From: Bilabrum cf. latius
Taxonomy: Eukaryota
NCBI GenBank assembly: GCA_965178125.1
Contig: OZ237745.1
Location: 558,001-622,000, forward strand
Direction of reading: 5' to 3'
DNA: 64,000 nucleotides
In this document: piece after piece, positions 1-64,000 of the stretch
Numbering within the stretch: the first letter of the stretch is position 1
Layout of the letters: each line of letters opens with the position of its first letter
The notes under the pieces: model-generated
The model's database searches: none
Told to the model about the DNA's origin: nothing
The model's input: the letters and a program-made list of their open reading frames with translations, nothing else
Program-made: the position numbers and the translations under genes

Positions 1-3000
1 CTGGCGGACCCGGGAGCAGGCGCGGGCGTGCTCGCTTTCCCGGCAGAGGTAGAGGCACCGCCATGATCCTGATCTTGATCCTGCTCCGCATCGTTGTCGG
101 CGTTGCTTGCACCCTGCATGCGGCCTAGCAGGTCCTGGAACGCGCCCAGGTCTGCCGTCTGCTCGTCGCCGTCCCCCTCGACTTCGTTGTCGATCTCGCT
201 GGCATCAAGGCCGCTGAGCGCCGCTGTGCGGTCGCCGTCATCTTCCAGTCCGGCGGTGGACTTGCTGGCCTTGGACTGCGCTGAGAGGCGGGCCGAGCGG
301 CGACGGCCGCTGCGGGTGCCTGCGCCACTGGATGCGGAGGCTGGTGCCTTTGCCTTGGTCCTGCCCGTGCTCTTGGCAGAGCTTGTTCCCTGGGTCTTAT
401 GCTTCTTTGCGCTGCTCCTGGCGCTGCGGGTGCTCCTGGCTGATGCGGGGGCAGCAGCAGGCTCGTCCTCCTCCTCCTCCTCATCCTCCTGACCTGCCGC
501 TGCCTCCTCCGCGGCTGCATCCAGCATTGCCTGCATGGACGATGATCCCGCACCGGCGCCGGCAAACGTCGCCCTGCGTGCCGCCGCCATGCGGCTCCGA
601 CGCACCACCGCCTGCTGGGCCGAACCCCCTGCGCCCGCGCCAGCACGAGCGCTGTTGGCCTTGCCGGCAGATCGACCCGGCGCTGCTGAGCCTCTCGGCG
701 TTCCGCTGCCTCGAGAAGCGGAGGCCGGACCACTGGCATGCGCAGCCTCCTCGTCCTCGTCCTCATCTTCCTCTTCGTCCATGTCGATGTCTCCTTCGTC
801 GTCCATGGGTGCTTGTTCCCCGGCCTCAGCAGCGGCCTACCTGGCGGCCTGCTGCATGGCGTCTTCGTCCTCATCCAGCGCAGAGTCGATCGAGGCGCTC
901 TCGAGGCTGGCCACGTCCTCATGCTCACCTACCATGGCCATCGCGCCGGAGTCGGTTCTTCCGGTTGCAGTGGCGGTTGTCTCCACCTCTGCCACCATTG
1001 GCGCGGCGCCAGCGGAACCGTCCGCCGCCATTTCCATCGAGGCAGACCTCTAGTGCCTCGGGGCCAGGGAAGCTCGCCTGCTGCTGCTGGCGGCAGATGA
1101 CCTCCTGGCCCTGCTCTTGCGGCCACTCCTGCTCTTTCGCCCGCTGCTTGGCAGCTGAACCTCCACGTCGGCGCCCTCCTCTTGGCCATCTCCCTGCCCC
1201 TGCCCCTGCTGCTGCTGCTGCTGCCCGTCCTCGCCATCGTCGCTGTCCTCCGTTTCATCCCCGTCCCCGTCTTCCTCCTGGATCCCCGTCCTGGACCTCC
1301 CGCTTGCGTCCTCCCAGTGAGACAGGATGGACGAGTTCACCGCGGTGGCCTTCGTCTGCTCCTCCTCCTCCTCCTCCTCTTGCCCCTGTTCCTGCTCCTC
1401 CCCCAGGTCGTCTTCAAAGGTGAGCCGCACCTGCCCATCCGGCCCGTCAGGGGCCGCTGCCCCCGGCCTCGTCTGCGAGCCAGCGGAGCGCGGGGCCTGA
1501 GAGGAGCGCGAGGACGATGCCGAGGAGGAGGAGGAAGAAGACGCTGCTGCTGCAGCAGCTGCAGCAGAACCCCCCGTGCTGGGCTCCGACCCAGCCATCG
1601 AAAAGAGATCTCTGGCCTCGTGGGACGGCAGTGGTGTCATGGATACCACGGGTGAGTGCTTGCGGAACTCTGCCGCGCGGGGTGACCCAAATGCGACTTT
1701 CCTTCTCTCCGATGTCCTCGCTCTCGTCTTGTGCCCGCGGAGAGCGCTCAAGATGCCGCGGGAGGGGGTCTGCATTCCAAAGGGGGGGAGATATAATAGA
1801 GACAAGAGAAAGGGATAGTGGATGGGGCTAAAGGAGGCTCAATGGGGGCTAGATGACTGCCGCAGAGAGTGGAGTAGCGTAGAGTCCACTGTGGGGCTGC
1901 TGCGGGAGCTGCTACCAACCACCGAGGAATACAAACGATAGGAACGTACGTCTCACCTTGCTCCTATGCATTGGCCCAACATGCGCGTCAGCGTCAACCT
2001 GCGCCTGAGCCCCGCCAGCTTCAGTCCCTGGCGGGGTGGAGACCTTTCGCTCCTGCTCTTGCTCGTCCTCGGCATCATCATCGCCACCGTCGTGGCCCGT
2101 CTCGACCGCAAACGAAACGTGATGCTACTACTGCTGTTGCTGCTCTTCCCCCTCAGCGGATGGTTTGCTGGAGGCGGAGGAAGCAGCAGATGATGACGAG
2201 TGGGACTCCTGGAGAGCTTTGGCAGCCGCGCCGATGGCTGCCTCGGCGGCGAGCACCTGAGTGTCGTCGTCCTCCTCCTCGTCCCCGTGCTCGCCGTCCT
2301 GGCCGCCTTGCATGTCGTTGAAGAAATTCATCAGCTCTGCCATTGCTGTGGGAGAGGCTGTTTGGCGCTCTTTGGTGGAGCGGTGCGGCCCCGGGGCACC
2401 GCTGGTGCTGCTTGCGGCAGGCTCGCCCATCGCCTCCAAACCGAGCACGTCGGCCTCCGACCCTTCGCTGATCGCGGCGCTCGCTACGCTACGGCGAGAA
2501 GAACGACTGGATCTACGACTGCGTCCGCCGACTGATTTCTTGCCGCTGCTTTTCGGTGGTGCTGGCTGGTTCTCGTTGTTGCCGGCTGCGAAGGTTGAAG
2601 CAAGACACTCGGTGCGACGCACGGCCCTCAATGAAACAGATTTTAACACGATATTTCCTCCGAGAGAAAACAACTCACCAGCTCCGAGTAGGTCTTGTAG
2701 CGTACCCATGTCGACCGTCTTGTCATCGCTAGCTGCAGAAGCGCGGGACCTCGTCTGCGCGTGGTCGAGAGTTGCCGCAGCACTTAGTATACCATGCCAT
2801 GAAGCCATAACACACATGAATACAATAAATACACGAAAAACTTACTGATGCAGCCAATCTAGGGCTCCGACGAAGCTTGCTTAGGCTTTCTGGACGGCGG
2901 GAGGACTGCGCACACAGGTGGATCAGGCCGACTGAGTTTCGTTGAGACTTCCTTTGAGAAAAAAGTTCTGTAGCCGCATGCAATCGGTAAACATACGTTT

Positions 3001-3026
3001 TGATGACGGCTAGGTGAAAGCGCCAT
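1..3026 (-). CDS. KNL1/Spc105-like kinetochore scaffold, N-terminal disordered part (runs off the left edge)
   Basis: ATG at 3026. Predicted GT-AG introns 2996-2906, 2845-2755, 2678-2586 and 1956-1770. Carries an SILK-like RGILS and an RVxF-like RKVAFGSP PP1-docking pair, plus repeated MELT-like motifs (DDKTVDMGTLQDLL, DEQTADLGAFQDLL). In-frame TAGs at 2128, 2125, 1050 and 837; the frame stays open to base 1. Confidence 0.55.
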
Positions 3027-3182: not shown

Positions 3183-5103
3183 ATGGCCGCTGCCTCTGGA
3201 TCTGCCGACCTTACCTTTGAGAAGTATGATGTTAGTTTTTGTAGTCTTAGCGATGCGGTCACAAGGTTTCGCGGCTGTCACAGATCGCACAGCTCGGGAT
3301 GTGCTCATGATGTGTGATGCTCGACTTGTTGTTTCGTCCTTATAATTCGCAGTTCCTGAAAGAGTTGGGCATCACTGGTTCAAATGGTGGTGTGTATGAC
3401 GGTAAGACCTGCATGCGTAGTCGTTTAGTCGAAGTACTGCCTGCTGAGCTGGTTCCCTTCCGAGTGTTCCCGCGCTTTCCAACTGGATCGCGCGGGAACT
3501 GCATCGATTGCGGTCCCGGCGCGAGGATACTATGTCCATTCGCGCAGTTCAATGTGTTAATAAGCTTGCAACACTCCGCCATTCCTCCCACACTCCTCCC
3601 AATGCGCTCCCCGCAGGCGAGTGGAAGGGCTCCGGTGGCGCGGTCACCTCCATGAACCCCGCGACTGGCGAGGCCGTAGCCACGGTGGCGCAGGGTACTG
3701 CTGACGAGTACAAGTCGTGCCGCGCGGCCATGGACGCCGCGAAGAAGGACTGGGCCGAGATGCCGGCCCCCAAGCGCGGCGAGATCGTGCGCCAGATCTC
3801 GAACGCGATCCGCGACAAGATCGAGCCCCTGGGCAAGATCATCTCCCTGGAGATGGGCAAGATCCAGGCGGAAGGAATCGGCGAGGTGCAGGAGATCGTG
3901 GACATGTGCGACATGGCTGTCGGTCTCTCCCGGTCCATCAACGGGCAGGTGATCCCCAGCGAGCGCGAGGGGCACACCATCCTCGAGCAGTGGAACCCCC
4001 TCGGCCACGTGGCCGTCATCTCCGCCTTCAACTTTCCCATGGCCGTGCTGGGCTGGAACATGGCCCTGTCCATGATCTGCGGCAACTGCACGCTGTGGAA
4101 GGGTGCGCCCTCCACCTCGCTGTGCTCTGTGGCACTCACGAGGGTCATCGCCGACGTGCTCAAGAAGAACGACATCCACCCCGGCGTGTTTGTTCTCTGC
4201 CAGGGCGACGCTGACGTCGGCGAGATGATCACGGCGGACCCTGGGATCCCCCTGGTGTCCTTCACTGGGTCCTCGCAGGTGGGCCGCAGAGTCAGCGAGG
4301 TGGTGCACGGCCGATTCGGGCGCACCATCCTCGAGTGCTCCGGCAACGCCGCGGTGATCGTGATGCCCTCCGCCAACATGGACCTGGCTCTCAGGGCCGT
4401 TCTGTTCGGGTCCGTGGGCACTGCCGGCTAGCGGTGCACCACCTCGAGGCGGCTCCTCGTGCACGAGGCCGTGTACGACGAGTTCGTGAGCAAGCTGGCC
4501 AAGTCCTACGGGAGCGTGCCTGCGGGCAACCCCCTGGAGGAGGGCACCCTCCTGGGCCCCGTGCACTGCGAGCGGGCGGTGAAGGAGTACGAGGCCGCGG
4601 TCAAGGAGGCCACCGAGGAGGGCGGCAAGGTGCTCGTCGGCGGCAAGCGCATGGACAGGGCGGGGTACTACGTGGAGCCCACCATCGTGGAGATGTCCTC
4701 GTGCAAGGCCGAGAGCATGAAGGAGGAGGCCTTCGTGCCCGTGCTGTACGTGGCCAAGGTAAAGTCCCTGGAGGAGGCCATCGAGGCCAACAACTCGGTC
4801 AAGCAGGGCCTCAGCTCAGCCCTCTTCAGCACCGACATGAGGGAGGTGTTCAAGTGGGTGGGGCCCTCGGGGTCTGACTGCGGACTCGTCAACGTGAATG
4901 CGGGCTCCTCGGGCGCCGAGATCGGCGGGGCGTTCGGAGGAGAGAAGGAGACTGGCGGGGGGCGCGAGAGCGGCTCCAACGCCTGGCAGCAGTACATGCG
5001 CCGGTCCACCTGCACCATCAACTTCACAGACAACCTGCCGCTTGCGCAGGGCATCAAGTTCGGTGGAGGTGACGACGATGCGGCCGCTGGGGGAGGCAAG
5101 TGA
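3183..5103 (+). CDS. ALDH7A1: Aldehyde dehydrogenase family 7 (antiquitin / alpha-aminoadipic semialdehyde dehydrogenase)
   Basis: Exons 3183-3230, 3353-3401 and 3617-5103. Motifs LTFEKYDFLKELG, ISAFNFP, SFTGS, catalytic loop VGTAG[TAG 4429-4431]RCTT, and [22 protein letters not shown]. Ends TGA. Confidence 0.97.
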
Positions 5104-5354
5104 GACCGGTCCAATCTGATTTCTGGCACGTCCCGAGCGTGTCGGGCAGTGCACAACCAAAACGGACATTTTAGCCGACGATCGGCACGGTAGGCTAGAG
5201 CTCATTCTCACTAATCACTGTGACACCAACAATCCCACGTCAATCTGCCAGCGCGCGAGTACGACTAGACTACGCCGCGATCGGCTTCGTCTGATCCGGA
5301 GCCGTTGGGCAATAGCCCAGTGGATTGCCCATGTGCATGTGTGCAGACGCCGCC

Positions 5355-6052
5355 ATGCCAGTGCGTTTAGCAGAAGCATACCAACCAGGCCGAAGAAGTC
5401 AAGAAGGGAAAGTGAGGCGTGGTAGGCGTCGTGCGCTGCCGCTTAAGCCCCCACCGCTGCGTCTCTGGTCGCTGTGCCCAATTGTGTCTGCTGCATGCGA
5501 GGCATGCATATAGGGGACCTATCAACCGATCGCTTTCTTTCCCACCTCGAGTGCCTGCCTTGCACCCAGATGCAGAGGACCCCGTTTTACCCCACGCTCG
5601 ACAGTGGGGGTCTGGGCATGGTCGAGCTGATCCGCAGCTATCTGCCGGCAAGGAGAGTCAAAGCGCTTCTTTGGAGGACTACGTGCGAGGCCAGGGGATA
5701 TGCGAGCATGGTATCCACGGCTGTAGCGGAGTGCAGCCCCCTGGAGCTGGCCAGGAGGCTCAGGCTGGGCAAGCTGGTGGGCGGGCTCAGCCGCCGGGCT
5801 GTCCCGAAGAGGTAGAGTGGACTGCGGGGGCTCCAAGGTCAGCAAGAGCCTACTGGAAGCAGTAAGGCACGGGAGGCAACTGATGTGCGTGATATTGCCA
5901 CAAGAAGTAGCAGATTGATGCGCCTGTGCGCCTGTGGGGCCGACGGTGTGGCCCGGCGGCGCCGCGCGGACTCTGTTGCGGAACGCTTTGGCCGATCCGA
6001 TTGGTTAAATCTTCAAGAAGTACAAAGCATTCTAAACATATTAGTAGTTTGA
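5355..6052 (+). CDS. Hypothetical protein (probably spliced at the 5' end)
   Basis: The frame of ORF 5474-5815 continues through TAG 5813 to TGA 6050-6052. Kozak-like gccgccATG at 5355 is followed by a possible intron. No recognised domain. Confidence 0.4.
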
Positions 6053-6123
6053 ATACAGCGCTTTCATCCTGCAATCGACTTGTAGGCTGTATCATAACCA
6101 GTGGTATTGCGTAGACTAGTGGA

Positions 6124-7908
6124 ATGCGAACTAGAATCGGTGTTGCACTTGCAGTCTTTGCGGTGGGTTGTGGTGCTACCGAGCCGCAGGAAGCACCAAG
6201 TACCGAGTTTAGTTCCATTGAGCTTCCACCGCAAAGTTGCGATGTCAGTGTGGTTGACTTGCAAGGTATGGAGTTTCAGGACGTGTTGGCGGCGCAAACT
6301 TGCACCGGACTGATGAACCGCAACCCAGGCGTAATTGGCGCGGCTTTTACGATCCAAACTGGTCAGCAGGACTGGGACTGGCTCAGTACGATGCAGTCGC
6401 AGAGCTCGTGGATTCGTAGCGTTCGCAACGTCACGTATCCTGACTTCGTGCAACGGTGCATGGCTTCCAACGTAACTGCAGGTTACATAAGATACCAGTA
6501 CTCGACGCAGCACCTGATCATTCCACAGCTCGTAACTGTAGCAGGGGTGGTGTCTGCTGTCCCCCTCGAGGATGGCTCGCCGTACACCAAGAACGCCTCG
6601 ATCGCGTTCGACGCAAGGGCAGTTTTCGGGACCAACAGCACGCTTCGGGAGGCTACTCAGTACATTTATGATCACTTTGTGGATAACACCACCACCATGG
6701 CGATGATGGATCCCGGTTTCACTGGAGCAGACAAGAACCCGTTCGCGCCGAACCTGACGCACTCGCCAAACGCTCGGCTGATCGACTTTATCGTGCAGCA
6801 GCGGTTGTTCAACTTCTACATGGTCGAAGCTTGCATCCCTCTCACGGATGATCACGCGCTTATGGATACGATCGCCGCCAGCAACCCCTGGCCGCGCCCC
6901 ATCCCCGTGTGGGGGTACGATAACACCTTCCCCATCCTGGGGGGCGATTTCTTCGAGGCGGAGACCTTCTGTTCCTCCCAGCACAACATGGGCCAGATCG
7001 CTTCCGACTCGGTGGACAACCTCTCTTTCTTCACCCTGGACGCGCCCATCACGGAACCCATGCCGCAGAACCCCACCCACGTCCCCACGTACAACAGCAG
7101 CAAGACCTACCTGGCCATCACCGTGGGTGATGGGGACAACCTGTCATTTATGCAAGGCGGCAGGAGGACATGGATGCAGCAGCGAGTGGCCAAGTGCAAG
7201 CAAGACCCCTCCTACAACGGCTGCTTTCCGCTCCTGTGGTCGGCCTCCCCGCACATGCTGCAGCACGCGCCTGCCTGGGCCAAGTGGTACTACGGCGAGG
7301 CAAGGGCCACTGGGAACGACTACTTCGTCCTGCCTCCCAGCGGGCACCTGTATGCCTACCCATCAATCATGTCTCCTGAGGATTAGGCGAGTTTCGTAAA
7401 GCAGACGGAGGAGGACGCCAGGCTCATGTCAACCAACTCGGCGGTGGCGTGGGAATTCGCCCTGAGCTGGGGCAAGGCGATCGACGAGTACTTTCCGCAG
7501 TACGACGAGGGGCAGATCGTGCAGTCATTCTTTGCAGTGAATGTTCCTTTCATGCTGCCCGTGCTTCCCTTCTTGGGAGGGAAGGAGTTCTTCAAAGTGC
7601 TGGGCAACCACTCCCGGGTCGTGCTCTTCAAGCCAAGGGAGTGGCGGGGCACGGACAAGTCCAGGTCGCCCCCACTCGGGCAAGGCTCGTACCTAACGGC
7701 CCAGGAAATGGCTGCAGAGGTCAACGGGTACCCAGGCGGGACCGTGACGCAGATCTATGTGACGAGTGACGGGGGCGCTAACCTGGACACGATCTACTCT
7801 CTGGTGCCTCTGCTGGGCGAGCACGTGCAGCTGGTGGACCACGAGGCACTGGCGGTCATGGCGCTGGCAAGCCATGGGGAAAAGCGGGGCAGGGGCGGAG
7901 GAGGGTGA
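6124..7908 (+). CDS. Secreted GxGYxYP-family putative glycoside hydrolase
   Basis: Signal-peptide-like N-terminus. GDGDN and LPPSGHLYAYPS motifs are typical of the GxGYxYP C-terminal domain. ORFs 6124-7386 and 7426-7908 are one frame joined by TAG 7384-7386. Ends TGA. Confidence 0.75.
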
Positions 7909-8405
7909 CCGCCGGGTGCGCTCTCAGTCTGTGCCGCGCGCTATCTAGAGATGCTCCTACTGGCGGCACACGGGTGGGGCTGCTGTCGCGGACTGTGGCC
8001 ATCTCTTATCATACGGATATATGAGATTGCTGCGCGCGCGGAGAGGCTTTATTTATATCCCATGCCGCAGTCGTGGATCTGCAGCAGTGGTGCCCGCGCC
8101 AACACAAGTTTCGCGGATCGAGGGGCTTGCCTCTCTCAGTGGCACCTCTGTAGGCTTGAAATATAAACAAGGAAACTAGTTTGTACACTTGGAACGCCGT
8201 GTACGTGTCTGACAAGCGCGCGAATCTGCCGAACCTGTTGCACGGAACCTCGCGCCCGAGCCCTACGGGGATGTCGCTGTCCTCCCGTGCCGGACTTGTA
8301 AATTGCCAGGCTGCTGGTGAGAAGTGTCCGCATGCGCAGCAGTGCTTTCCTCCACGTGCAAGCAAAGTGAAACCCAAATGTGGCCTTCCCTCGATCGGGC
8401 GCTGC

Positions 8406-9756
8406 TTATTTCTTGAGCGGCACCACCAGCGTGAACGTGCGCCCGTCGTGCATCTCTGCTCCGTTGCTCATGTACTCGATGTCGCCAGAGGGCCCGAACA
8501 CGAGCTTGGGCCTTTCTCGCCTGCTTAAGTTCATGATCGTGCCATTGGCTAGTGGCACGTAGGTGCTATATGCCCGCGTGATGGTGCTGAAGTTGAGACC
8601 GTCGCGGGAGAAGGCGTGCCCTCCGGCCCAGCCAGGGGAGGGGATGGGGCTTGTGCTGTGCTCGCCGATGGGGTCGAACATACGGTGGTACAGCACGTGC
8701 CAATTGCCCCGCTTGTCCCGATACATGAAAGGGTCTTCCTCGCACTTCTCGCAGTAGTCGAGATTCCCGGTGATGAACGTGTAGGGGCCCCTCCAAGTAT
8801 CGGCGTGGGCGACCGACTCGCCGGCCCAGGGGGCAGTCAGTGTGTGCACCATCACGCGCACGGAGGAGTCGGGCATCAAGTACGGCGCTGGGTTCCAGTT
8901 TTTCATGGAGAATGACTGCTGGCCGATAGGGTTGTTCGTAAAGTTGGTGTAGTACGGCTTGAACGGGCCTTCGGGGCCATCCACGCTGTAGTGCAGGGTG
9001 AACGGCGTGACTCCATCAGAAGTCGACGAAGTACGGACCGGGGGCAGCTCATCTACACTAATCTTATTCGTTGGCGTGTGGCTCGCGGCATCCCCAGGCG
9101 TGCAGTTCTTGGACGGTTTCGTAGGAACGCCGTTCCCGAGCGTGAAGATCACCCACGCGTCCCTTGCCTCGCGGCCATCTGCAGCCACCTCTCCCATTCC
9201 GATCGCTCCGCCAGGGACATGAATAGCCTCTGGGTTGTGAGCCCATATCGGAACGACCATGGAAATCCGGTGAAATGGCCCAAGCGGTGTATCGCTAACT
9301 GCAACAGCAACTTGTGAATTTGATGTCCACTGCCCAAGTGAACAGTGCTCTGCCATCTCCGCAGCGTACATGTAATACTGCAGATCAATGGAAAATGTGA
9401 TGCAAATAAATCTAACTCTGCCAACTCATAATTGCCAGAAAGCATTGTACATCTTGAGCTGCACTCACCTTGCTGGTAGATGGGTCTTTAAGAATGGACC
9501 CGCCCCAGGTAGTAACAATGTTTGCTTTTTCGTCTCCTTCAAAACCGCAACCACCCTCTGGGTAGCACGATTGAACTGGCTAGAAAGCCAGAAGTGAGCA
9601 GTTCGATGCTCCCTGCCATGCTGCGTCGCATGCGCACTTTCCATCCGAGCATACGCCATTCAAGAAACAGTCCTCATCCGTCCCACACGATCCATCTGAA
9701 GCAGCCCTAACAGCCACAAATGATCCAACGACTGCAGCTGCAAACGCCCTCAGCAT
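8406..9756 (-). CDS. Secreted GH43-like beta-propeller glycoside hydrolase with an N-terminal EGF-like Cys module
   Basis: MLRAFAAAVVGSFVAVRA signal, then CGTDEDCFLNGVCSDGKCACDAAWQG. TAG at 9580-9582. Intron 9468-9378 joins TWGGSILKDPSTSK to YYMYAAEM. HNP, EDPF and RRERP motifs. Ends TAA at 8406. Confidence 0.75.
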
Positions 9757-10559
9757 CGATGTTTTTTGAAGTATGCCGCATGCGGCTGTGCGTCGAACGG
9801 ATGACTTTGGGTTACGTGCGAATTCTGTTAAAGAATAAGGCCAGATCCAAAGATTTTGACAGGATTAATCAACTTGCAATTTAAATTATTCGGGTCATAT
9901 CCGCCGTTGCGCTGTTGCAGCGCCCCCTTCCCCCTGCAATCACCCCTCACCCCCCGCGGGACAAGGTAGACCGCCTCCTCTGCTGCATTTGGGATCACAA
10001 AGCAAGCCTGCCCGACGACTGGTGATCTCGGGGAGCTCTGCCTGCCCCTCAGCACTGATGAACCAGCCGCCGCCACCAGCCGACCGCTGTTCCCTGCCCC
10101 ATAATCCACCCGCAAAGGTCACAGGGATTGACTTATCCACCTCTGTCCCGTACGCCTAGAGTGGAGGGCAGCGCGATTCTGCACACCAGCTCGGGTGCCG
10201 CCCCGCTGCTACTTGCCATCCACCCTCAGTCGGTACATGTACTCCCAGCCTTCGTCCACGAGGAAGCAGGGATAGCCCGCATCCCTCGCCCCCGTGTCTC
10301 GCCCCCCCCCCCCGGACGGGTAGCACCGGTCTACCCGTCGGGGGGGGACTCCGCTCATGGACCGGCTGGCCTTCTCTCGAATTGGTCCCTGCCGTCGCCC
10401 TCAACGGGGTCTAGCTGCCCCCCGCAAACCTGCCTTTAGTGAGCCAGTCTATACAGCGTTTTCGCTCACCCTAAAGTCAGAGTTCAACTTGTGGCGTTCT
10501 GGCGTCGCGCAGACCAACACCCCAAACCGCCAGAAGACGACGACAGCGAGTTTTGCGCA

Positions 10560-11396: not shown

Positions 11397-11598
11397 GTTG
11401 ATGCCGTCGAGCTTTTATATCTTCTGGTCTGGTGGCACTTATTCGTCGGTTGGTGAGTGAGAGCAGCTGCCGGAGCTATTTCTCCGGCACCGACGGCTGG
11501 CTGTTCCGGCATTGCCGTTACTGATGATGGACTCAGCACAGCTGGTGCTCGATCCGTTGACGGCAGATCACAGAATCTTTCAACTTGACGCCATGCAA

Positions 11599-13164: not shown

Positions 13165-13374
13165 AACAAGGTATTATATAATTGTGCGAATCGATGCAAT
13201 TCTTATGCAGCGTGTGCGGGTTATGCCACGAGCAGCGCTCTCCGTGGCAGCCGGCAAGTTCGCTGGTTTATGCGCGAAGGTTCGATCTGAGTCTGTAACG
13301 TGCAGTATGATTTGTGATCGGATCGAAAACCAACAGCAGTCAAACCGCCCTATATCTGGTGTATCGCGGTAACC
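13165..13374. promoter_or_regulatory. Probable bidirectional promoter between PP5 and RPS15
   Basis: 210-bp spacer between divergent start codons. No specific element identified. Confidence 0.5.
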
Positions 13375-14154: not shown

Positions 14155-14388
14155 GTGCTTGGCTGCCTAGCTATGGCACCAAACGGTTGATAAATAGGAA
14201 TGGCGGCGGGCATCAGTATGGTGACTGGTGCTGACGAATTGGCTGGATTTTTTGGAAGGCTGCGGCATGGCTCGTAACCAACTCCGAAGTGACTTGAGAG
14301 TGTACGGACGAGCTTACAGCAGCTTGCATTTCATTTCTGTTCATGGGGATTCGCCAAACGCTGTGAAGCGCTAGACACTGGTCATGTT

Positions 14389-43863: not shown

Positions 43864-43909
<46 letters not shown>

Positions 43910-52400: not shown

Positions 52401-55400
52401 GAAGGAGCCGCTCTGCCTCCATGTCCTCGGTGGGGAGTGCGGGTGCACTGGAGTCAGCGGAAGCTACCGCTGACGCCAGGTCTGCTGAAGGTCGCAGCGC
52501 CGTAGAAGCTGCGGCCAAGCTAGCCCTCACATCGGCGCCTGTATTTGCTCGGCTTGTGTCGCAAAGAACCAACCACAGGGTCAGCTCTGTAATCGACTTG
52601 CTCGCTATAGCAGAGCATGACCTGGCCCTCAGCCCGCACGATGCGCCTGATGTGGAGTCCAAGCAGGAGCGGGCGTCAGGTGTCACTGCAAGGGCCCAGC
52701 TGGCTGTGCAAGGTGTCGTGCTGACGTCACGCCTGCTCGAGAGCTGCGTGAGATGGGCGGCAGCCCAGACGACATCTTCAAAGGGAGATATTGCGGTCGA
52801 AGTCACCCGGCGCGTCGTGCATGCGATGCAGGGCGAGCTCAGCCCTGAGGCAAATGTGCTCGATACCGCCACCCTGGCCTACTGCAAGACCATCAGTTTC
52901 GGTCTTCGGTGCATCGGAATGGGTATGGACGGGTCTGTTGCAGGTAAAAACACAGAGCTTACGAGTGTAGCTAGCTATGTGGGTGCATCATTGTGCCTCA
53001 AGTCGTCATCAACAGCCCTAGCAAATGGCAGCCTCACGGCCACGCCGCCATTTGCAGCCCTGTTGGCCACTCTGGTAGCGCCTTTAAGCCGGAGTTCGGG
53101 TGCAACCGAAGCAGCCCTGCAGGTGCTGTGCGTCCATGCCGTTGATGCCGTTGGGCACGTGCGAACAGCAAGCCAGCATGCAGAAGGAAAGAAGTGCCTG
53201 CTTGAATTCGCCGACAGGTACCGTGCGTGCTTGGCGCCATGCTTGCTGATGGGATTCGTGTGCCTCTAGCATGCAAGCTCTGGGGTGCGATCTGCGGCGT
53301 TGCGCTTGCTTGGGGCCAGCTCAAAGCTGCACAAAGCTGTACTGAAGGCAAGCTCAGACGGGAGCAGCAAATCAGATGGAGTCGAAGGGCACGTTGCGGT
53401 TGCATCTGCCCATCAGCTAGAGGCTTCTGTCCCTGCGTTGGAGGCTCAGGTCATCACGCTGTTTTGTGGGAGATCATCAGCCGCCAGCGAAGACGCTGAA
53501 TCACGGAGAGCTGCTGTGGCACGAGCTGGCGGATACTCAACCCATCTGGCCTGGCTAGGTAAGAGCCTAGCGCAGAAGTACGCGTCGTAGATTGTTGCCG
53601 CGGCCTCAGCATCATCTGCCTGTGTGGCCGACCTGTGCTCAAGCGTGCAGATCCAGTAGCGGGCCAGGTGTGCTGTGACTTTGATGCACGCGGCGCATGG
53701 GGCCCTGCACAGCGCGCCCATGGCCGCAGTCTCCTTGATTAGGGTAGCACTTTCCAGCGCCGCCCCCATGGGCTACGGTAGCCCGACCTACGAGAGATCG
53801 TACGCCAGTGATGCAATCGGCACGTGCGGGGTAGCCCTGCTCCGACCTGCCGCTGCCATTGTCGCCGAGCTTGTTGGAGACGCATCGGTGCACGGCTCTC
53901 TGTCAGAGCCTGCTGTCCTGTTGCTGCATAGGTCCCTTGCTGTCGTGCGAGCTGCCGCAAGCCGGGCTGATGACAGCGACGTCTCCAAGCATTTGAGGTC
54001 GTTCGGGGTGCGAGTGCTCATGCACGCTGCTACGGTTGCTCCGTTTGAGATCGTCTCGTTTTCATCCGTTGCTGACTTTGCCAAGGCTCGTGACTTTGGC
54101 AAGATTGCTGCCGAAGGTCGGGTGGCCGCGATCGAGGTACGCGCAATGTTTGCCAAGCATGGTGTGCTCAGCAACTTGGCTCAGCCGGCGGCCTTCAATG
54201 CCCTAGCCAAAGCAAGGCACTTCGCGTCCCATGGTGCGCGAGCCGTGCACGCTTTATCGGAAGCCAATATAGGCCCAGGCCGCCGCGCGCCCCTGTTGCC
54301 TAGTGTGGTTGCCAGCCTACCAGACCAAAGCAAAGGATCAGAAAGCGAATCCCTGGCCGGGCCCGCCGTATCCGGCTCGAGCTCCAGCGAGGATGAGCTA
54401 CAGGCAAGCATGGCTGCTGATGAAGCGACCTATAGCTACCCTTTGGTCATGCCAATCAATACTGAAGCTTACAACAAAGGAATGCCACCGACGTGCCGTG
54501 ACGAGATGGTGCAGCGCCTCGTCTTCGTTGCAATGCGAGGCCCCGACAAGAGCACGAGAGCTGCCATCGCTGGCCTGCGACGGCTTGGGGCGGGAGCGGC
54601 CTCTCTGAGCTTGGCCCTCTCTGCCTTGGGGTTAGCCAGAGTGGGTGATGGCCACTCCGCAGTACTAGCTAGTCCTGAACTTGCCGGCGAAGGTTCCGAT
54701 GTCTTGCAAATGTACCTGCAGTCGGTATCCAGCCTTCTCTCTGTTGTTGTGGCTTGCCTTGATGCTGACGAGTGCGACGAGAGCGAAGGCGAATGGGACA
54801 CGCTGCTGCCCCAGGTCCAAGGGCTATTGGCAAGGTGCCTCTTCCATAGCTGGGCGTCCTCGGATCGAGAGGCGAAGCTGGAAAGCCTGTCTCCAACTGT
54901 GGACCCAGCCGAGAGGGCTACTCTAACGAGCAGGAGTGGAAGAACTGCCCAATCAGTGGGTGATGCGCAGCACGTTGCGCTGCTTGCGCTGACTGTTCTA
55001 TACCGAATCAGCCAGCAAATGGAGTCGGACAGAGATGCGTGCTCAGTCATCGACGTTGCCTTGGTCGAGGCTTGGGCGCATGACACCAACCCCTCATTGC
55101 AACGGGCTGCCCTCCTGCTGCTCAGTGCATACGCTAGACTGAAGCCAGTCGAGGTGCTCAACCGCCTGATGGCAGTCTTCGCCGAGCTTGCGATCCGCAA
55201 CATGGGTAGCGACGATCCGTTAGGCTTTGCCATGGCGCAGAAGATGCTCTCACACGTGCTGCCTACGGTTGTGGCTCACGGTGAATTGGTCGGGATCAGT
55301 GCCTCGCATGTGGTGAGGCTCTTCTCATCTCTGATAGGTATCGTCCCGGTGCACCGCAGGCAGCCTCTCTTTGCAGCCCTGCTAGAATCCCTGGGAGTCG

Positions 55401-58400
55401 CAGAAAAGGAGAAGAAGTCGGTAGGATTGGTCTCTGATGGTTCGGAGGCTGAGAAAGGAAGCCTGTCTCCTGCCGACGGTGAAGATGCGCGCGTGGATCT
55501 CGATGGCATGCTGGATGGCAAGGCCAAGTACGCCAGCGTGGCTGCTGCCCTGCTCCTGTCGGGCTATGTGACGCGCCAGGACTCCTCGACCGAAGTGAGG
55601 AGAACTGGCTGGCGGCAGCTCTCCCTGGAGGACGCGGGGCGAGAGGCCCTCAGCTATGTTGAAGACGACACGTTCGAAGCCGATGAACACATGCTATTTG
55701 GGGCTGTGCAGCAGGCTGTTTAGCCCTCTGATGGCAAGCCGATTCCGGTGCAGGCGTTCACAGGACCCCCCAGGCTGGTGCCCAGGACACTGGCTGCCCT
55801 TGGCTCTGATCTATACGACGAAGAGGGCACGCTGGCGCAGGCTGTGTTCCTTGCTGGCGCTGATGCCGCCATCAACGCTAGGCTGCCGTCAACGCTTGAG
55901 CTGTGTCGCTCCTTGCTTGGTCGCAGCAGTGCCGAGAGGCAGGTCCTGCAGCTGGCGCAGCTCACAGGCATTGCATCTGCCGTGCTCGATGCGTCCTCTT
56001 CAACAGTATCGGATGGGGTGGCTAAGGAAGGCAAAGATGCCGGGGGCGATGATGATGATGATGAGAGCAGCGAGAAGCTGGGCCCGGTATCCCAGGACTG
56101 CGTGGATGTATTGCAGGCGTGCGTGCCGACAGGGGCCTTCGCCGCGAGTCTTGTGGGCCAAGGACCGGTAGCAGGCGGCCCGGCGGACATGGAGGCCGAC
56201 GACGAGAAGGTCGGCGGCTCTGGCATGTATGCCGCTGCCTCGGAGCCGCAGATGCTCGCGGTGGGGCTTAGCCTGGCTCGGTTTGCCGCCGCCCATCTGT
56301 CTACCCCGCAGTTCCTGGCTCAGTGCGCCGCCAAGGGCAGAGCTGGGGGGCGATAGGGCGAGGCGCTTCAGGAGGCCTTCCTGCTGCTCTGCCAGGCAAC
56401 CTTCCGCTTGCTGCGGAGGCAGGCGGTGGGGCAGGAGGAGGCTGAGCGAGGCCTAAGGTTCGCTCGCAGTCGCGCGAAATCCGCTTCTGGCGATGCCTCC
56501 CTGGCCGGGGTGGGGAAATCAATCAGCGAGGAACTGGGCGAGAGGTATGAGCTGACTGGGGCCGTCAGGAGCTGCCGCAGCGCCGAGGAGGCCGTGGCAT
56601 TCGCACGAGTGCATGCGTGGCGGGAGGCGGGGGAGGCTGCGTTTGCAGCCCTTAGCAAGATCGGCCAGCTGCTCAGCGTGGGAGCCTTCGCTGCTGTGGT
56701 TTCTGAGCTGCTGCAGCACGAGGACCCGGTGGTGCGCAGGAGGTCCATTTCCATGTTCAATGCGCACGTGTCTGCTAGGGCAGACAAACTGACCCGGGCA
56801 GAGGCCCAGCTGTACCTGCACCTGCTGGAGGACCTGCTGCCTATGGTCCGCAGCCGGGAGGAGTCCCAGGAGACGAGGCAGACGGCCTTGCTGGCAGTAG
56901 AAGTGCTCGCCAGGAACTTCGCGAGCGAGTTTCCAGTGGCGTTCAGGCCTGCCCTCGAGGCGACTGCAGAGATGATCGACGCTTCTGCTGCGCGGGTCGG
57001 CGATGAGCTGCGTGCTGCTGCGTGCGTGTGTGTGCAGGCGATGGCAGGCCACATGGGTACCTTGGTGATCAGCCACCTGTCCAGAGTCGTGCCGGCGCTG
57101 TTGAGCGCCGCGGAGCGGTCGCTTCCTTCTGCCACCGCCGGTGCTGCAGCAGCGAGTGGTTCCGGTGACGAGGGCAAGGGCGGCGATGACGCTGCTCGTG
57201 CCCTGCTCCTGCGATGCTCTCTCGGTGCGGTGGCTGTCTTCATGGACAAGTTTCCCTAGTTTATGCCTGGATTCCTGGTGCGTGTGCTGGCTACGACGTG
57301 CCACCCCGGGGTGGTGTCCCCGCCCGACGGTGCTATGGACATTGCATTCGGTGAGGAGCTCGTGGGTGCCATGTCGCAGGGGAGCTCGGGATCTGGACTT
57401 CAGGGCAGGATCCTCAAGGCGGTGCGGGCGCGCCGCGCCCTGGCAGGGACCCAGCAGCGGCTGCAGGAGAGCATGGCCAGGCTGGTGCCCTCGAGGGCGC
57501 TGTTGCCTCAGCTGCTCAAAGCACTCAAGAACAGCCGTGGGGGGGCAGTGGCCACGGTGTGCGGTTGCCTGTCTGCTATCCAGGGAGCCCTCGAAAACGG
57601 TCGCCGCGTGGAAGTGAGCGGACTGGCCCCTAGAATTTCAGAAGGCCTGCTAGATATGCTTGACTACAGGTGGCAGGCAGCGACGGCCGGAGCCTCGCGG
57701 CACAGCACCATCGTGGACCGTCAGGTGGGACGTACACTGGGCGCCCTTATCCTTCGCGTGAGCGGGGACGCTGCAAGGTCGCTTGTTGGGCTGCTGCTGG
57801 AGTGGGGCACCGCGGGCTTCGAGGAGCTCAAGGAGCTGGCCAAAGATGATGAAAAGGCTTTGATCGCTGGAATCGGCCGCCGGACATCAATGTACACGGT
57901 GCTGGGTGCCGTTATGCGTGCGGGGCAGGAGGCCCTCGTCGATGTCATGGGTGATGCGTTCGAGGCTGTCTGCGCGGATCTCCGGGGCTGCTTCGTGCCA
58001 GTTCCGCTTGCAGCGCTTGCAAGCGATGAGGGTGCTGAGGAGGCACGAGCGGGCCAAAAGCGCGGGCGCAGTTCGGATTCGGACGAGGTCGGAAGCCCTC
58101 CGGCCAAGAAGCTGAGAGCGGACGACTCGTCAGGCAGCGACGCAGACTCGTCAGATGACAGCGACTCAGATAGCGACAGTGACAGCGATGATGACGAGGC
58201 GGAGGAGGTGGCTTCCGAGTCTCGGCACGCAGACGCGATCACTGACGCGCAGAGCCGCTTTGTAGGCTTCCATGTGGTTGCCCGAAGCGCACCAAGGGGT
58301 GTTCGGGCTGCTGCAGCAGCATCAGAGACCAAGAGCACTGTGGATGATGCCGCCTGCCACGACATGGACGGCGGTGTGCTAGTCCCTGCCGTTTCAGCCG

Positions 58401-58987
58401 GAACGGTCGGAGTGCCGACGTCCAGGCACGGGCTTCGCTGCGCTGCGCTGGCCTTCTTGCAGCACCTGCTTGCCTTTGACTCCATGGGCTGGGTGGCGGG
58501 CGACAAGATGCGTCTAAGGATGATTGTGCGCAGCATTGCCGGCGCTTGGGCCCCGCCGTCATCGCGCAAGCGCGGTCTCGAGGATATCCTGGAGTCGTGT
58601 GCTTCCGACGCTGCCCAGCCCGCCGCGATGGCCGGTGGCCGGCGCGGACTGGCCTCGTACGGCGACCGGTATCTGCTCCCGGTTACCACAGCTATGGTCA
58701 AGTGCCTCTCAGGAGACTTGCAGTGGAAGCAAGTCAACCTCATGGTGCTCGAACACTCACATGACGAGCGGCCGGAGGTGCGCGAGCTGGCGATCAGATG
58801 CTCTCAGGTGGTGTTCGACGAGGCCGGGACGGATGACGTCATGGTTCTCATCCCGGAGACGTTGCCGTTTGTGGCCGAGGCCTTGGAGGATGAAGACGAA
58901 GCCGTAGAGGACTCGGCCAGGTCTCTGTTCAAGCGGCTTGAGGACCTCAGCGATGAGGATCTTGAGGACTTCATCAAGGGGAACTAA
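49415..58987 (+). CDS. UTP10: U3 snoRNA-associated protein 10 (HEATR1/BAP28), about 3,080 aa
   Basis: N-terminus MATSLARQVA[TAG]L...ASVLF...LSPYFATRPAQKALEFLVRHFK; C-terminus LIPETLPFVAEALEDEDEAVE. Intron 49765-49882 and a second about 51853-52049 (boundaries uncertain). Eleven TAGs (49445, 50106, 50391, 50796, 51663, 53267, 53588, 53657, 55721, 56354, 57257). Ends TAA. Confidence 0.92.
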
Positions 58988-59148: not shown

Positions 59149-61179
59149 TTACGCACCTTCAAAAGAAGTCACCGTGGACAACATCGGCTCTGCAGTCTCC
59201 ACAGGTGACACTTTGGCGAGCACAGCCTGCAACAGGCCGTTGCGAGAGTGCACAAGCTCTGGCGTAGAGCTGTTGGTGATCATGTCGATCGTGTGCCCAG
59301 AGCCCACCCCAGGCACCTCGAAAGACACGCGGCCCATACCAGGCGCCGACACGACTGCCGACCCGCCACCTTGCCCATCCGGCCCGACAGCGATGGAGGT
59401 GTTCTGGTTGCCGTCGAAGGCGAGCAGGGGGATGCTCACCCCGAACCCGATGATGGGAGACCCGTCCAGGGCACCGGCTGCCTGAGGCTTAACGACGGAG
59501 TGGTCGATCTTGACGCGCCCATCGGTGATCGTGACGGTCTGCTTGGCCGCCACGCCGTCGTCCAGCAGCACGTACGTCACGTCATACTGCACGAAGCTCG
59601 CGTTGTTGACGTTGCCGGGCAGCATGGTCACGGCGTACACGTCGGTGGCGAGCTTGTCGCCGAGGCACTCGAACCCGGCCAAGGGGCCCTCGGTCCTGCG
59701 CGGCGCATCTGCCGACGTCTCTGACGAGTTGAGCTGCCAGCAGGGGCCAACGGCCAGCCCACCATACTCCTGCTCCGACCCCGCGGTGGGCCCAAGCAGT
59801 CCGCTCCCCGCCGGCCCGCTGGCCATCCTCTTTGAGTGCATCCTGGTGACGCCCGTCGAGTCGTAGTGCGGGTCTGCGCCGGTCTCATGCTCGACGTACG
59901 TGCCTGCAGCGTTCGCGAACACCTTGTGGAACCGCGGCAGGTAGAACACGTATCCCCCGACATCTGCCGGCGCCGCGCACTCAGGGATGCTGTCGTCCGC
60001 AAAGAGGAATGCCGTGCTGACCATGGAGGCAGGCAGCAGGTTGTACTGGGCCTAGTACGAGTAGCTCTGGTAGCCCCACCTGAGGGCAGGATCGAACCGG
60101 TTCTTCACGATCTCCATCTCCCCGGCGGGCATGACCCACCTCCGGAGGCTCTCAAGGGACAGCTAGGAGCCGCGCTTGAACATGCAGGCCAGCTCTGGGT
60201 GAGGCTTACCGTCGGGGCTGCCGGAGCCATCCTGCAGCCGAGTGGCCCACATCTCGTACAAGGCCACCGACACCGCTTCGTTCCACTGGTGCTGGGAGGA
60301 GCGCCCCCCTGTGGGAACCTCTCCCAGCGGAGACTGCATCAGGAGCGACATCCATGCGCCCCTCCTGCTGAGCTCGGAGAGGTATGCGGCGTGGGACTCG
60401 TTGTAGCCGCGGGCAATCATGACGCTGTAGTACTTCCGGGGGAACACGTCGTATGGCATGGGGTTGAGTCCGCCGGTGCCGGTGTGGTCCTCGTACATGC
60501 CATCTGGGGTAAAGCTCCCTTCGCTGATCTGCTTGTCGAGCTCGGAGCGCCACCAGGATCCGTTCGAGCTGAGGCCGGCTTGCTCCCTCAGGTATTCGCC
60601 CGTAAGTGCGACGATGCCCCAATTGTTGGACTGGTACCCGTGATACGCTTCGAACGGCTGAATCTCGCGAAGAAGCGATTCCCACAAGTTCATCGTGGTT
60701 TGATTGACGACAGGGCGCAACGCCTCGAGTCCAAGCATTAAAGGCATAACATAAAAATTGCAATGACCTTGGGCACATCGAATCTGTGCAAGTGCTGAGA
60801 CTGCGGCAGTGTACGCTCGAATTGAGCTGTCTAAGAGACCTGTACCGTCTGCACAAGCCGAGTGCTTGGCCTTGCACAGGGTAGCGCTAGCGAAAGCGTA
60901 GCACGGTGTTGAATACTGGATCTCTTCGTGAGCGTACCGGTCAATGATGGTACCGTTCTCTGCCTAGTATTGCCGAAAGTAATCGACGATTCCAGCGATC
61001 CAGTCCAGAGCATCCGATTTGGTCAAGTTTGTGCGGCGGAATGCATCCGGTGTTGCTGCTGCTAGCTACTGAGCTTGAGCTACAGTGCTCTCATGCGGCC
61101 ACGCCGGAATAGACTGCCCCACAGCAGATCCAGCGCACAAAGCAGTAAACACCACTAGAACTTGAAGAAGCGCCATCAT
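59149..61179 (-). CDS. Secreted uncharacterised bacterial-like enzyme (676 aa), possibly an alpha/alpha-toroid carbohydrate-active fold
   Basis: Signal MMALLQVLVVFTALCAGSAVG. Intronless single frame through TAGs at 61066, 60964, 60163 and 60052. Motifs IQYSTPCYA, SNNWGIVA, PTGGRSSQHQWNE and KNRFDP...GYQSYSY.AQYNLL. Ends TAA. Confidence 0.7.
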
Positions 61180-61558
61180 TCGATTTACACTCAGCTAAGC
61201 AGGTACACTTCGACGGCCCTAAAGCTGATTCAGCGCAAATTGCACCGGCAGTGAACACTTCTTCGACTGTCCTGGAGCTGATCCAGCGCAAATTGCAGTG
61301 AGCGGCACGGAGCACGGTAACGAAGTACACGGTACTGGTCATCTTCAATGAATCGGATTTCTTCTTCTTTTTTGCTAGATATGCACTGAATTTGTCGCAT
61401 TCTTAGAAAGATACTACAATCGTGAAGTCATTTAGGGGTGTGACACATACTGAAAGCGCAGCCCGAGGGCCAGTGACGCTCTCAACCCCGACACATACCT
61501 GTCTGGTCTTGGCTGGGCGAGTGCCCCTTGCAGTCAGACCCACACAAGGTGAATTTTA

Positions 61559-64000
61559 TCATACCTCCTCTGCATTACTCATGCCAGCTGATACGCTGCC
61601 CGCATTGCTCGTCCTGGATGCAGCCGCACCACCCTTCTTGGCAGCTGCCGCTGGGCTCTGCGTGGAGCGGGCGCAAGAGATCCTGTAGACCAGGAAGGCG
61701 ACCACAGCGAGCACCACCAACCCGCCGAGCACGCCGACGGCGATGATGCCCGGCGACACGCCATCGTTATCCTCGTCACCGTCCACATCACCTCCACCAT
61801 CGCTCGGCTGCGCCTCCGCTATGCGCACTTCCGTGTCGACCTGCTCCGCCTCGATCTGCACCGAGGAGACGTCTACCTGCAGACGAGATGCCACCGCGGG
61901 AACCTACGCGATGAGGTCGTCCAGCAGCCCGTTGCCCCCACTGGCGGGAGTGCCGGACACGTAGCCGGTCACGGCCGTGCGAGTCTCCTCCGCCGATGCG
62001 GTGACAGGGAAGCGGACGGAGGAGTCCACCTCGATTCCCGACCCACTGCCGGACTGGAGCACGCGAGCCCCCGTCGCGGCCTGATCCTCCACGCGGGTGA
62101 TGGTCACCTCCGATGCCCCTGTCGCTGCCGCTATACTGGCCTTGTATGGCTCGGCCAGGCTCTCGAGGAACTGCTTCTTGTTGACACCCTGCAGCTTCAC
62201 GCCCGCCATCTCGACGTACACGCCGATCTGCCGCACCGGCGCGGTACACGTGTTCGTGCCTGCCGAGCACACGAGTTCGCCATCGCAATTCTCACTGGTC
62301 TCGCACGCCAGCCCCTGCGCGCAAAGCCCGCAGCCGATTTCAAGGTCCTCGATGCCGCAGTCGATGTCCGTCTCGAAGCCGTTGACAATACCGTCGCTGC
62401 AGGTGGGCTCGGCGTCCTGCTCGAGCTCCTCGGAGCACACGCCCTGGTCGTCCTCGAGCCAGCCAGCGTCGCACGAACAGGTAAATACCGCGGGGTCGGA
62501 CGAGTCGGCTTGGCACACGCCGTTGCCGCACGGCTCGTCAGCACACGGACCTTCAACCCGGACCTGCCCGCAAAAGTCGCCAAAGAATCTGGACTCTGAG
62601 CATGAGCAGACCACGCTCCCGGCATCGCTGACTGCACACTGGGCCCCGTTTTTGCACGGATTGGGGCTGCAGGGATCCGCTGGTGCTGCTGTCGGGGACG
62701 GAGTGGGCGTGGCCTGGGATCCAGCTGGCGAAGGCGAGGGGCTCGCAGCAGCTGGCGAGCTGGAGCTGGCCGATGGGCTTGGGCTCGCGGAGGGGCTGCT
62801 ACTCATGGATGGTGAAGACGACGGGCTCGGGTTCAAGCTTGTGCTAGGACTTGGGCTGGTACTAGGAGTCGGAGAAGTCGACGGGCTCGGGCTCGGGAAT
62901 GCGGCTCCCACCATCTTGGCAAAAGGCGCCTACCCCGGGTCGGTCATCGAGTAGACCAGCTCGACGCACTCCTCCTGGGCCAGTTTTTCGTCACCGACGA
63001 TTAGGTCACCGTTGTCCAGCCGATGCTGGGACACGTTCAGCTGCAACGTTGCTGGATTCAGCTTTGAATCCAGTCCAATGCACGAATAGAGACTGATGTT
63101 GTAGTCGGTTCGGCCGAGGTCAGCTGCGACCAGTGCGACAAGGCCAGATGCTCCAGGCACCATCACCGTCTCGAGCACGTCGAACGACAGGTAATTCGAG
63201 CTCGTGTCCAAGTTGATCGAGTCCCTCTGGATCTGCGCTTCCTGCCTTCCCAGCGAGCTCTCGACATACTGCAGGCCGTTGGTGTCGCCCTCCAGGTCGA
63301 TCGTGTTGGATCGGACCAGCTCTGGCGAGATACAGTCAGCCACGGGTTCCTAGGTGATCGTCATAGTGTCATTCAAGGTATAGGAGTCGTCACCCGCCTG
63401 CGCTTCGCACATATCTCGCACCTATATCCGAGACGTGGACGAGTCGTCCTAGACCAAACCGACATGGAACGATGCAGATGATGTGCTGCTATCAGCTGAA
63501 ACAACGAGGCACATGTAATGCTCCGGATCCCCGAACGAGTGCACCACGAGCATCATGTCACTAGTCGCCTCGTACACCGCTGAGTCAACCACGACCAAGT
63601 CCAAGGGGGCGGCATAGCTTTGTACGATGTGGATCGTGTCGTTGAAGAAACAAGCAGACTCAATGGCACTGGTATCATCGGAGACGCCCTCGTACTGCAA
63701 GCTGGCAGCATCCAACGCTGGGGCTGCCTGCAGTCCAACCATCCAGTCGCTCTTGCTGTTGCCCCTGCACTCGGCATCTTGCGAGCTCGTCAGATTGTAC
63801 GTCTTGAGCGGGACTGCATCAGAGTCTTCAAACACGTTCGTGCATGCATAGTTGGCCTGCATGCCGTTTGAGCGATGCGGCCCAACGCCATCGATGTCGT
63901 ACAGCTCTAGTGTGGTCTTTCCATTCGTCATGTCGAAGACCCCTTTGGCGCACACCCAGGATTCCTAGCCCAGGGACCCATCGCCAACATCCGTTACATA
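61559..64000 (-). CDS. Cell-surface type I membrane protein with a Ser/Pro-rich stalk, EGF-like and Cys-rich modules (5' end beyond the window)
   Basis: EGF motifs CSPNPCKNGAQC and CADEPCGNGVC; CSDGIVNGFETDIDCG repeat; TM IIAVGVLGGLVVLAVVAFLVY. One frame through TAGs at 63965, 63449, 63422, 63350, 62930 and 61904. The 3' end may splice (gtatga near 61564). Confidence 0.75.

Follow-up and report, generated by a model that had tools for sequence, protein, structure and literature searches.

Evidence for a nuclear genetic code with UAG as glutamine and UAA and UGA as terminators in a GC-rich eukaryote

Nuclear genetic codes in which UAA and UAG have separate meanings are rare; a single fornicate, a rhizarian, a genus of green algae and a small number of ciliate lineages are named as having them (PMC11687900). 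What makes these codes especially interesting is that the release factor has to tell apart two codons whose only difference is the third base. In the fornicate Iotanema spirale, UAG encodes glutamine (Gln) and both UAA and UGA are stops (Panek et al. 2017, PMC5304391), and the same UAG-only change to Gln is reported for Protocruzia tuzeti and twice within the phyllopharyngean ciliates (PMC11687900). The other uncoupled codes described in that source are UAG as leucine (Leu) in an uncultured rhizarian, UAG as serine (Ser) in Scotinosphaera, and UAA as lysine (Lys) with UAG as glutamate (Glu) in an oligohymenophorean ciliate (PMC11687900). Here we analysed a 64-kb stretch of DNA from Bilabrum cf. 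latius (contig OZ237745.1, positions 558,001 to 622,000; hereafter the window), which has a content of guanine plus cytosine (GC) of about 61% and carries eukaryotic housekeeping genes on both strands. We consider it highly probable that the window belongs to a nuclear, GC-rich, intron-containing eukaryotic genome in which cytosolic UAG means Gln and only UAA and UGA terminate, as in NCBI table 15. Of the reassignment as such we are almost certain.

The codon mapping of the window is identical to that of Iotanema, likewise a non-ciliate that keeps UAA as a terminator. Iotanema is a caviomonad, from a family of endobiotic fornicates (PMC9161772), and an anaerobic lifestyle is implied for it only by an abstract on Metamonada; the window organism differs in its GC content of 61% and stands beside a stramenopile in one gene tree. 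The UAG-only ciliates, Protocruzia tuzeti and the two phyllopharyngean lineages, share the mapping and also its rationale, an anticodon CUA that reads UAG only (PMC11687900). They differ from the window, which is GC-rich, lies on a multi-gene contig of at least 64 kb (a 212-kb contig in a DNA run) and has GT-AG introns of 87-260 nucleotides (nt). Ciliate macronuclei are mostly AT-rich, and phyllopharyngeans have gene-sized chromosomes. Reading of both UAA and UAG as Gln (table 6) occurs in many ciliates, hexamitid diplomonads, some ulvophycean green algae and aphelids. Such codes resemble that of the window in assigning Gln to a stop codon, probably via a mutated tRNA-Gln, but TAA terminates in the window (six gene ends, no in-frame TAA). 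The uncoupled Leu, Ser and Glu codes differ in the amino acid, and in the window the scores of Leu, Ser and Glu were far below that of Gln. Code-15 bacteriophages, namely crAss-like and Lak phages (PMC9523058), also read TAG as Gln, but theirs are phage genomes in bacterial hosts, whereas the window comes from a eukaryotic nuclear genome and carries housekeeping genes and spliceosomal introns.

A reading made earlier from the sequence alone (the sequence-only reading) had given a list of uncoupled cases that proved incomplete, since Protocruzia tuzeti, the two phyllopharyngean cases and Scotinosphaera (PMC11687900) were not named in it. It had also called the reassignment possibly undescribed. 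This fits our literature result: in the full-text literature, with subscription journals and supplements mostly beyond reach, no report was found of a UAG-only change to Gln outside Iotanema and the ciliates, stramenopiles included. The independent origin and the priority of this reassignment are plausible but unproven.

UAG as a sense codon in genes and transcripts

Once TAG was taken as sense, the window's longest frames from stop to stop extended over 3310, 2321, 1756, 1309 and 1115 codons, compared with 1393, 805 and 696 codons under the standard code; reading TAA as sense instead gave no comparable gain (1393, 866 and 805 codons). Sixteen long frames (17,174 codons), which by construction lack internal TAA and TGA, contained 79 in-frame TAGs. 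This count matches the figure of about 80 given by the sequence-only reading, though not every one is coding: two lie in the intron at 51888-52147, and several fall in 5' leaders or in the probable intron of the gene at 3-2841. Seventy of the 79 come after the first in-frame ATG, and for 53 the 40 codons on either side both show coding-like usage. The count does not include one more TAG, which exon 1 of the gene at 8406-9709 carries at 9580-9582.

Our gene tallies cover 16 resolved genes, with three or four small ones left out (at about 9.9-11.4, 42.4-43.6 and 47.4-49.2 kb). Fourteen of the 16 carry TAG, mostly with 1-10 codons each, while protein phosphatase 5 (PP5) and ribosomal protein S15 have none. 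The sequence-only reading had given TAG in 18 of about 20 genes. Across 15 cleaned gene stretches we counted 66 TAG, 541 CAG and 105 CAA codons, so that TAG makes up about 9% of the Gln-class codons. Codon usage in the 40 codons after a TAG was coding-like (mean +0.209, n=78), compared with a mean of -0.065 (n=17) after the terminal TAA or TGA (Mann-Whitney p = 6e-7). UAG is a sense codon in the window genes.

We then compared contigs of four runs (X1, X5, X6 and X7) with 20 kb of the window (3400-23399). Run X1 was DNA-like: its depth was even, at about 16.7, and its long contigs crossed introns and spacers. The contigs of X5, X6 and X7 ended at gene borders, left the spacers uncovered and varied about 100-fold in depth between genes; they skipped two minus-strand GT-AG introns that X1 keeps, as well as the ALDH7 intron. 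In the gene at 8406-9709, for example, the spliced joint 9377/9469 (CT..AC on the plus strand) was present in X5, X6 and X7 and not in X1. From splicing and coverage we infer that X5-X7 are RNA.

The X5-X7 contigs were colinear with the DNA across at least 11 TAGs, with no listed differences, gaps or other joints. The TAGs covered are those of ALDH7, all six of strumpellin, three of the 1756-amino-acid (aa) gene, that of the GxGYxYP gene and the one at 9580-9582. Two RNA-like contigs of ALDH7 (3616-5188 and 3616-5266) showed 0 differences to the DNA, and the same was true of strumpellin, which was covered by 19297-23180 in X5, 19637-23162 in X6 and three contigs in X7. UAG is thus present in transcripts, and because the RNA-like contigs are colinear with the DNA over the TAGs, full editing or splicing-out is excluded at these sites.

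Glutamine at UAG in homologs and in a relative

To read the amino acid, TAG was translated as X or masked, and the residues at the matching homolog columns were recorded. The TAG of ALDH7 (4429-4431, plus strand; DNA ggc act gcc ggc TAG cgg tgc) occupies the invariant Gln of the aldehyde dehydrogenase motif G-T-A-G-Q-R-C, and its column was Q in 120/120 homologs listed and in 3/3 printed PDB alignments. One of the 120 homologs (P0400) is the organism's own protein. This public protein corresponds to ALDH7 (window 3616-5100) with TAG read as Q, has 523 aa and is 100% identical, so it is not independent evidence; the gene caller seems to have chosen the model with TAG as Q for its contig. For strumpellin, the alignment held 108 homologs of at least 800 aa among 150 listed. 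The TAG at 20643-20645 (minus strand; DNA ttc gag tac att TAG gac ttt) lies at a nearly invariant Gln in F-E-Y-I-Q-D-F-I, and this column (780) was Q in 97/108 homologs. The remaining five strumpellin TAG columns were variable, and the Q share over all six was 0.248, against 0.247 at the protein's own CAG/CAA columns. The 729-aa protein encoded at 59149-61338 had 123 homologs, and the 120 listed ones were aligned. Its TAG at 60964-60966 (column 72) was Q in 97/101 non-gap homologs, and the Q share was 0.315 at TAG columns vs 0.312 at CAG/CAA columns.

The summed log-odds over 11 TAG columns, computed in a manner like that of Codetta, were +9.27 for Q, followed by H (-6.87), R (-9.58), A (-9.71) and K (-10.23). 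The TAG columns are thus enriched for Gln, and the meaning of UAG here is Gln.

A related sequence gave a second line of evidence. The metagenome contig L001 (4219 bp) encodes a strumpellin that is 87.7% identical to that of the window at the protein level; its frame of 1248 codons is open only with its 11 in-frame TAGs as sense, and both genes end with TGA at the same C-terminal residue. Among 16 codon pairs that involve TAG, 13 were TAG/CAG, with one each of TAG/TAG, TAG/GAT and TAG/CGG; the window TAG at 20643-20645 is CAG in L001. TAG stayed Gln-class in 15/17 cases, as did CAG in 37/42 and 27/30. The codon differed at 53% of the residues conserved between the two genes, and this, together with the retention of TAG at a rate like that of CAG, indicates purifying selection with TAG as a synonymous Gln codon. 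A second, related organism therefore has the same code. The L001 gene has a lower GC content at third codon positions than the window gene (0.68 vs 0.81) and more TAGs (11 vs 6), so TAG use in this lineage may vary with base composition.

Public protein sets also contained a relative's strumpellin, only as pieces of 145-216 aa that were 84-88% identical to parts of the window protein. The pieces P0109, P0122, P0126, P0132 and P0148 all start with Met, and a single 4389-bp contig carries two of them. P0148 stops just before the window TAG 565, and P0122 begins at the first Met past TAG 65. Gene calling with the standard code would yield just such pieces, and they look like the mis-annotation of a gene with in-frame TAGs.

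These comparisons bear on two other explanations. UAG might stand for another residue (Glu, Lys, Leu, tyrosine, Ser or pyrrolysine), or be passed by low-level readthrough, and some TAG columns are indeed mainly K/R or H in distant homologs. Genuine CAG/CAA columns, however, vary across homologs just as TAG columns do. The gap between Q and the next residue in the log-odds, the three TAG columns that are Q in all or nearly all homologs and the 13 TAG/CAG pairs speak for Gln, and about 66 sites over 15 gene stretches, with up to 10 in a gene, are too many for leakiness, which leaves this explanation scarcely credible. The TAGs might instead be artefacts, that is, pseudogenes, assembly errors, introns or RNA-edited sites, and introns or leaders do account for a minority of the 79. 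We regard the probability of this as practically negligible: the DNA run and the three RNA-like runs agree with no listed difference, the genes are conserved and differ from their ortholog mostly at synonymous positions, and L001, an independent assembly, shows in-frame TAGs too.

Termination at UAA and UGA and the decoding of UAG

Fifteen gene ends were resolved, of which six are TAA (the gene at 8406, PP5, the ankyrin-JmjC gene, YIF1, the UTP10-like gene and the 729-aa gene), nine are TGA and none is TAG. The sequence-only reading had listed eight TAA and ten TGA ends and never TAG; the absence of TAG stands, and the counts become six and nine. The transcript contigs of PP5 ended 1-38 nt past its TAA (at 11561, 11568 and 11598). 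TAA and TGA end genes here.

We also considered that UAA and UAG might both be Gln, as in table 6, with TAA merely rare in a GC-rich genome. CAA is the minor Gln codon here (105 vs 541 CAG), hence few TAA sense codons would be expected. Nevertheless, if TAA:TAG followed CAA:CAG, about 12.8 in-frame TAAs would be expected, and 0 were observed (P(0) about 3e-6). The six genes that end in TAA are followed by non-coding-like sequence, the PP5 transcript contigs stop shortly after the TAA, and frames are not lengthened when TAA is read as sense. A code with both codons as Gln is accordingly extremely unlikely.

A context-dependent code, in which UAG is Gln within genes and also a terminator near the 3' end, as in Condylostoma and karyorelict ciliates, would agree with the small number of gene ends in the sample (15), and several 3' tails do have a TAG shortly after the TAA or TGA. 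Yet none of the 15 ends is TAG, and no gene was found with a non-coding-like tail from its last TAG to the TAA or TGA. Between the last TAG and the end of its frame there are 24-576 codons; the 24-codon case is the intron of the UTP10-like gene, and in the 43-codon case (the 1756-aa gene) a coding-like acidic tail follows. We judge this alternative very unlikely.

The reading of UAG as Gln with UAA and UGA as stops, which the sequence-only reading had proposed, was thus corroborated by homolog columns, TAG/CAG swaps between orthologs, transcript-like contigs, codon usage and gene ends. Several points weigh against it. The case is built on nucleotide data and homolog comparison, and the sample is one window of about 16 resolved genes plus one ortholog contig. 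Fifteen gene ends are too few to exclude an occasional TAG terminator. Two TAG columns of the 729-aa protein are mostly H (column 339 is H in 78/120 aligned homologs), and the strumpellin TAG column 565 is mostly K or R. The automatic label of X5-X7 is merely "RNA?", with X5 also given as "probably DNA", and contigs drop rare variants, so that minor or partial editing is compatible with the data. A tRNA scan of the window found 0 tRNA genes, and eRF1 is not encoded in it either, which bears on the decoding steps proposed below. Rfam at its gathering threshold likewise gave 0 matches in the whole window.

As for the mechanism, UAG would be decoded by a tRNA-Gln with the anticodon CUA, which pairs with UAG and not with UAA, while eRF1 would have lost recognition of UAG and kept that of UAA and UGA. 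A tRNA with the CUA anticodon reads UAG only, so gain of such a tRNA need not bring UAA with it (PMC11687900). In the GTS motif of Iotanema spirale eRF1, a change of Thr to Gly is proposed to break the contact with the G of UAG (PMC9161772). We predict a tRNA-Gln(CUA) and an altered GTS motif in eRF1 for the window organism. TAG codons would arise mainly from CAG by C-to-T change; the lack of TAG in PP5 and S15, which are probably the most highly expressed of these genes, and the occurrence of only one TAG/TAG among the 16 pairs both agree with a minor codon that is gained from CAG, and lost again, through C/T changes.

Genes of the window, the lineage and the meaning of its code

Pfam families present in the window are ALDH, GxGYxYP, PP5, strumpellin, ankyrin with JmjC, YIF1, S15/uS19 and EGF-domain proteins, and besides these there are several very long frames without a known family. 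The earlier gene names ALDH, PP5, strumpellin, YIF1, JmjC with ankyrin, GxGYxYP and S19/uS19 were borne out by Pfam. The names "GH43-like", "ependymin-like" and "G-patch" were not, as the frames tried in 9.4-10.8, 42.1-43.5 and 47.4-49.0 kb had no Pfam match at E <= 0.01; nor was "UTP10" for the large HEAT-like gene, whose tried frames had no match at the same threshold.

The introns of the window are few and short (87-260 nt) with GT..AG ends, at 3402-3616 (ALDH7, plus strand), 9378-9468 and 11191-11277 (minus strand) and 51888-52147 (HEAT-like gene, plus strand). At the left end, the gene at 3-2841 has a probable intron. The last exon of ALDH7 (antiquitin) at 3448-5103 (plus strand) contains one in-frame TAG and ends with TGA; it matched Pfam Aldedh at 9.7e-127 and ALDH7 in the PDB at about 1e-183. 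Before 3616 the X5-X7 contigs have a loose 5' end that corresponds to window 3371-3400. A second 3' splice site at 3320-3352 (ttataattcgcag/TTCCTGAAAGAG, with the slash at the junction) lies upstream of the ALDH7 exon 3353-3401, which implies at least one further 5' exon and agrees with loose transcript-contig ends of 106-108 nt. The GxGYxYP-domain secreted protein (5893-7908, plus strand; Pfam GxGYxYP_C 1.5e-18) ends with TGA and has three TAGs in its frame, one of them after the start (7384). On the minus strand, the gene at 8406-9709 has two exons separated by the intron 9378-9468, an EGF-like N-terminus, the TAG 9580-9582 in exon 1 and a TAA end.

PP5 (11599-13173, minus strand; Pfam Metallophos, PPP5 and TPR) ends with TAA, and ribosomal protein S15 (uS19; 13687-14154, plus strand; Pfam Ribosomal_S19 2.1e-27) ends with TGA. 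Both are housekeeping genes with 0 TAG, and TAG is possibly avoided under high translation demand, although the sample is tiny and contig depth gives no rank of expression. The frame of 1756 codons at 14389-19659 (minus strand), of unnamed family, has three TAGs and a TGA end, and an RNA-like contig matched it over 14442-19184 with 0 differences. The X1 DNA contigs break at 14389/14442, just beyond the end of this gene; repeats within the stretch at 14390-14441 and 15552-15595 were skipped in the read-contig comparison. Strumpellin, subunit 5 of the WASH complex (19353-23282, minus strand), has six in-frame TAGs, a TGA end and a Pfam Strumpellin match of 1044 bits.

The armadillo-like frame of 3310 codons (23732-33664, minus strand) has 10 TAGs, each with coding-like flanks, and ends with TGA. 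Its last 40 or so codons (23732-23920) have non-coding-like usage (score -0.18), an odd sequence and no TAG, and a different true end or a 3' intron is likely for this 3' part. A frame of 952 codons of unnamed family follows (34002-36860, plus strand; six TAGs, five of them past the first ATG; TGA end). The ankyrin and JmjC protein (37961-40543, minus strand; Pfam Ank_2 and JmjC_2) has 10 TAGs, nine past the first ATG, and YIF1 (41042-42346, minus strand; Pfam YIF1 1.8e-42) has four, three past the first ATG; both end with TAA. The minus-strand frame of 1115 codons at 43684-47031, with a coiled coil and an RS-rich tail, has five TAGs and a TGA end. The large HEAT-like gene at 49824-58987 (plus strand), earlier called UTP10, has two exons, about 10 coding TAGs and a TAA end, and its intron 51888-52147 joins both frames in phase 0 (AAG/GTAAGA ... 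CGCAG/GAT). The 729-codon frame at 59149-61338 (minus strand) encodes a secreted protein of unnamed family with four TAGs past the start and a TAA end. The last gene, for an EGF-domain membrane protein (61559-64000, minus strand; Pfam EGF), runs off the window; it has six TAGs and ends with TGA.

For placement of the organism, a FastTree of strumpellin was built with 59 rows: the window, L001, 17 labelled sequences and the 40 top unnamed matches from about 400. The window and L001 fell in a clade of 25 rows (support 100) that also contained Platysulcus tardus and two MMETSP rows, and outside which lay Holozoa, Euglena and a green alga; Platysulcus tardus was the only named stramenopile included. 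The sequence-only reading had called the genome stramenopile-like. This tree, with its single named stramenopile, agrees weakly, but the best named matches of the 729-aa protein were sponges and choanoflagellates, along with bacteria. The family of this protein is patchy, with members in choanoflagellates, homoscleromorph sponges, Monosiga, Terriglobia, Verrucomicrobia and other bacteria and with no Pfam match, a distribution that could reflect gene transfer.

The best EukProt matches of ALDH7, with 60-62% identity, came from scattered sources, namely Amoebozoa, Heterolobosea, a glaucophyte and Rigifila, and the PP5 cluster search gave broad animal, fungal and plant clusters only. The named EukProt matches were Platysulcus, Chloroparvula, Oscarella, three choanoflagellates, two amoebozoans, a heterolobosean, Gloeochaete and Rigifila, none of them close (strumpellin identity at most 46%, ALDH7 at most 65%). 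Among the named matches there was no ciliate affinity save one ciliate ALDH7 at 58%, amid many other eukaryotes, and the comparison set held no fornicate sequences.

The sequence also occurs in runs under three other organism labels from three studies (X5-X7 and X8), and in the three runs compared, under two labels, the contigs match with no listed difference. The organism seems to be present in otherwise-labelled material, be it as a contaminant, a synonym, prey or a co-culture, for example. The sequence, or that of close relatives, also turned up in runs labelled marine, algae and protist metagenome, at low shares of the words sampled, which we do not take as evidence of habitat or relatives.

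That this is an independent, unreported origin of a UAG-only change to Gln, in a free-living, GC-rich lineage of at least two species that is neither ciliate nor fornicate and possibly stramenopile, is a real possibility, though one that we are slightly inclined to doubt. If the origin is independent, codon capture under AT pressure would be hard to invoke in a GC-rich genome in which TAA is still a stop, and the favoured route would be one in which a tRNA-Gln(CUA) was gained and eRF1 altered. A GC-rich case outside the known groups would then be an independent replicate for the recurring changes in eRF1 and tRNA, and would also test the need for mutational pressure in code change. DNA and RNA data already exist for this lineage, which if the reading is true would make it a tractable system for how eRF1 tells UAA from UAG. 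In practice, annotation with the standard code breaks such genes apart, as the public pieces of the relative's strumpellin (145-216 aa) show. Unless table 15 is applied to assemblies and metagenome bins from this lineage, both their gene content and their completeness will be underestimated.

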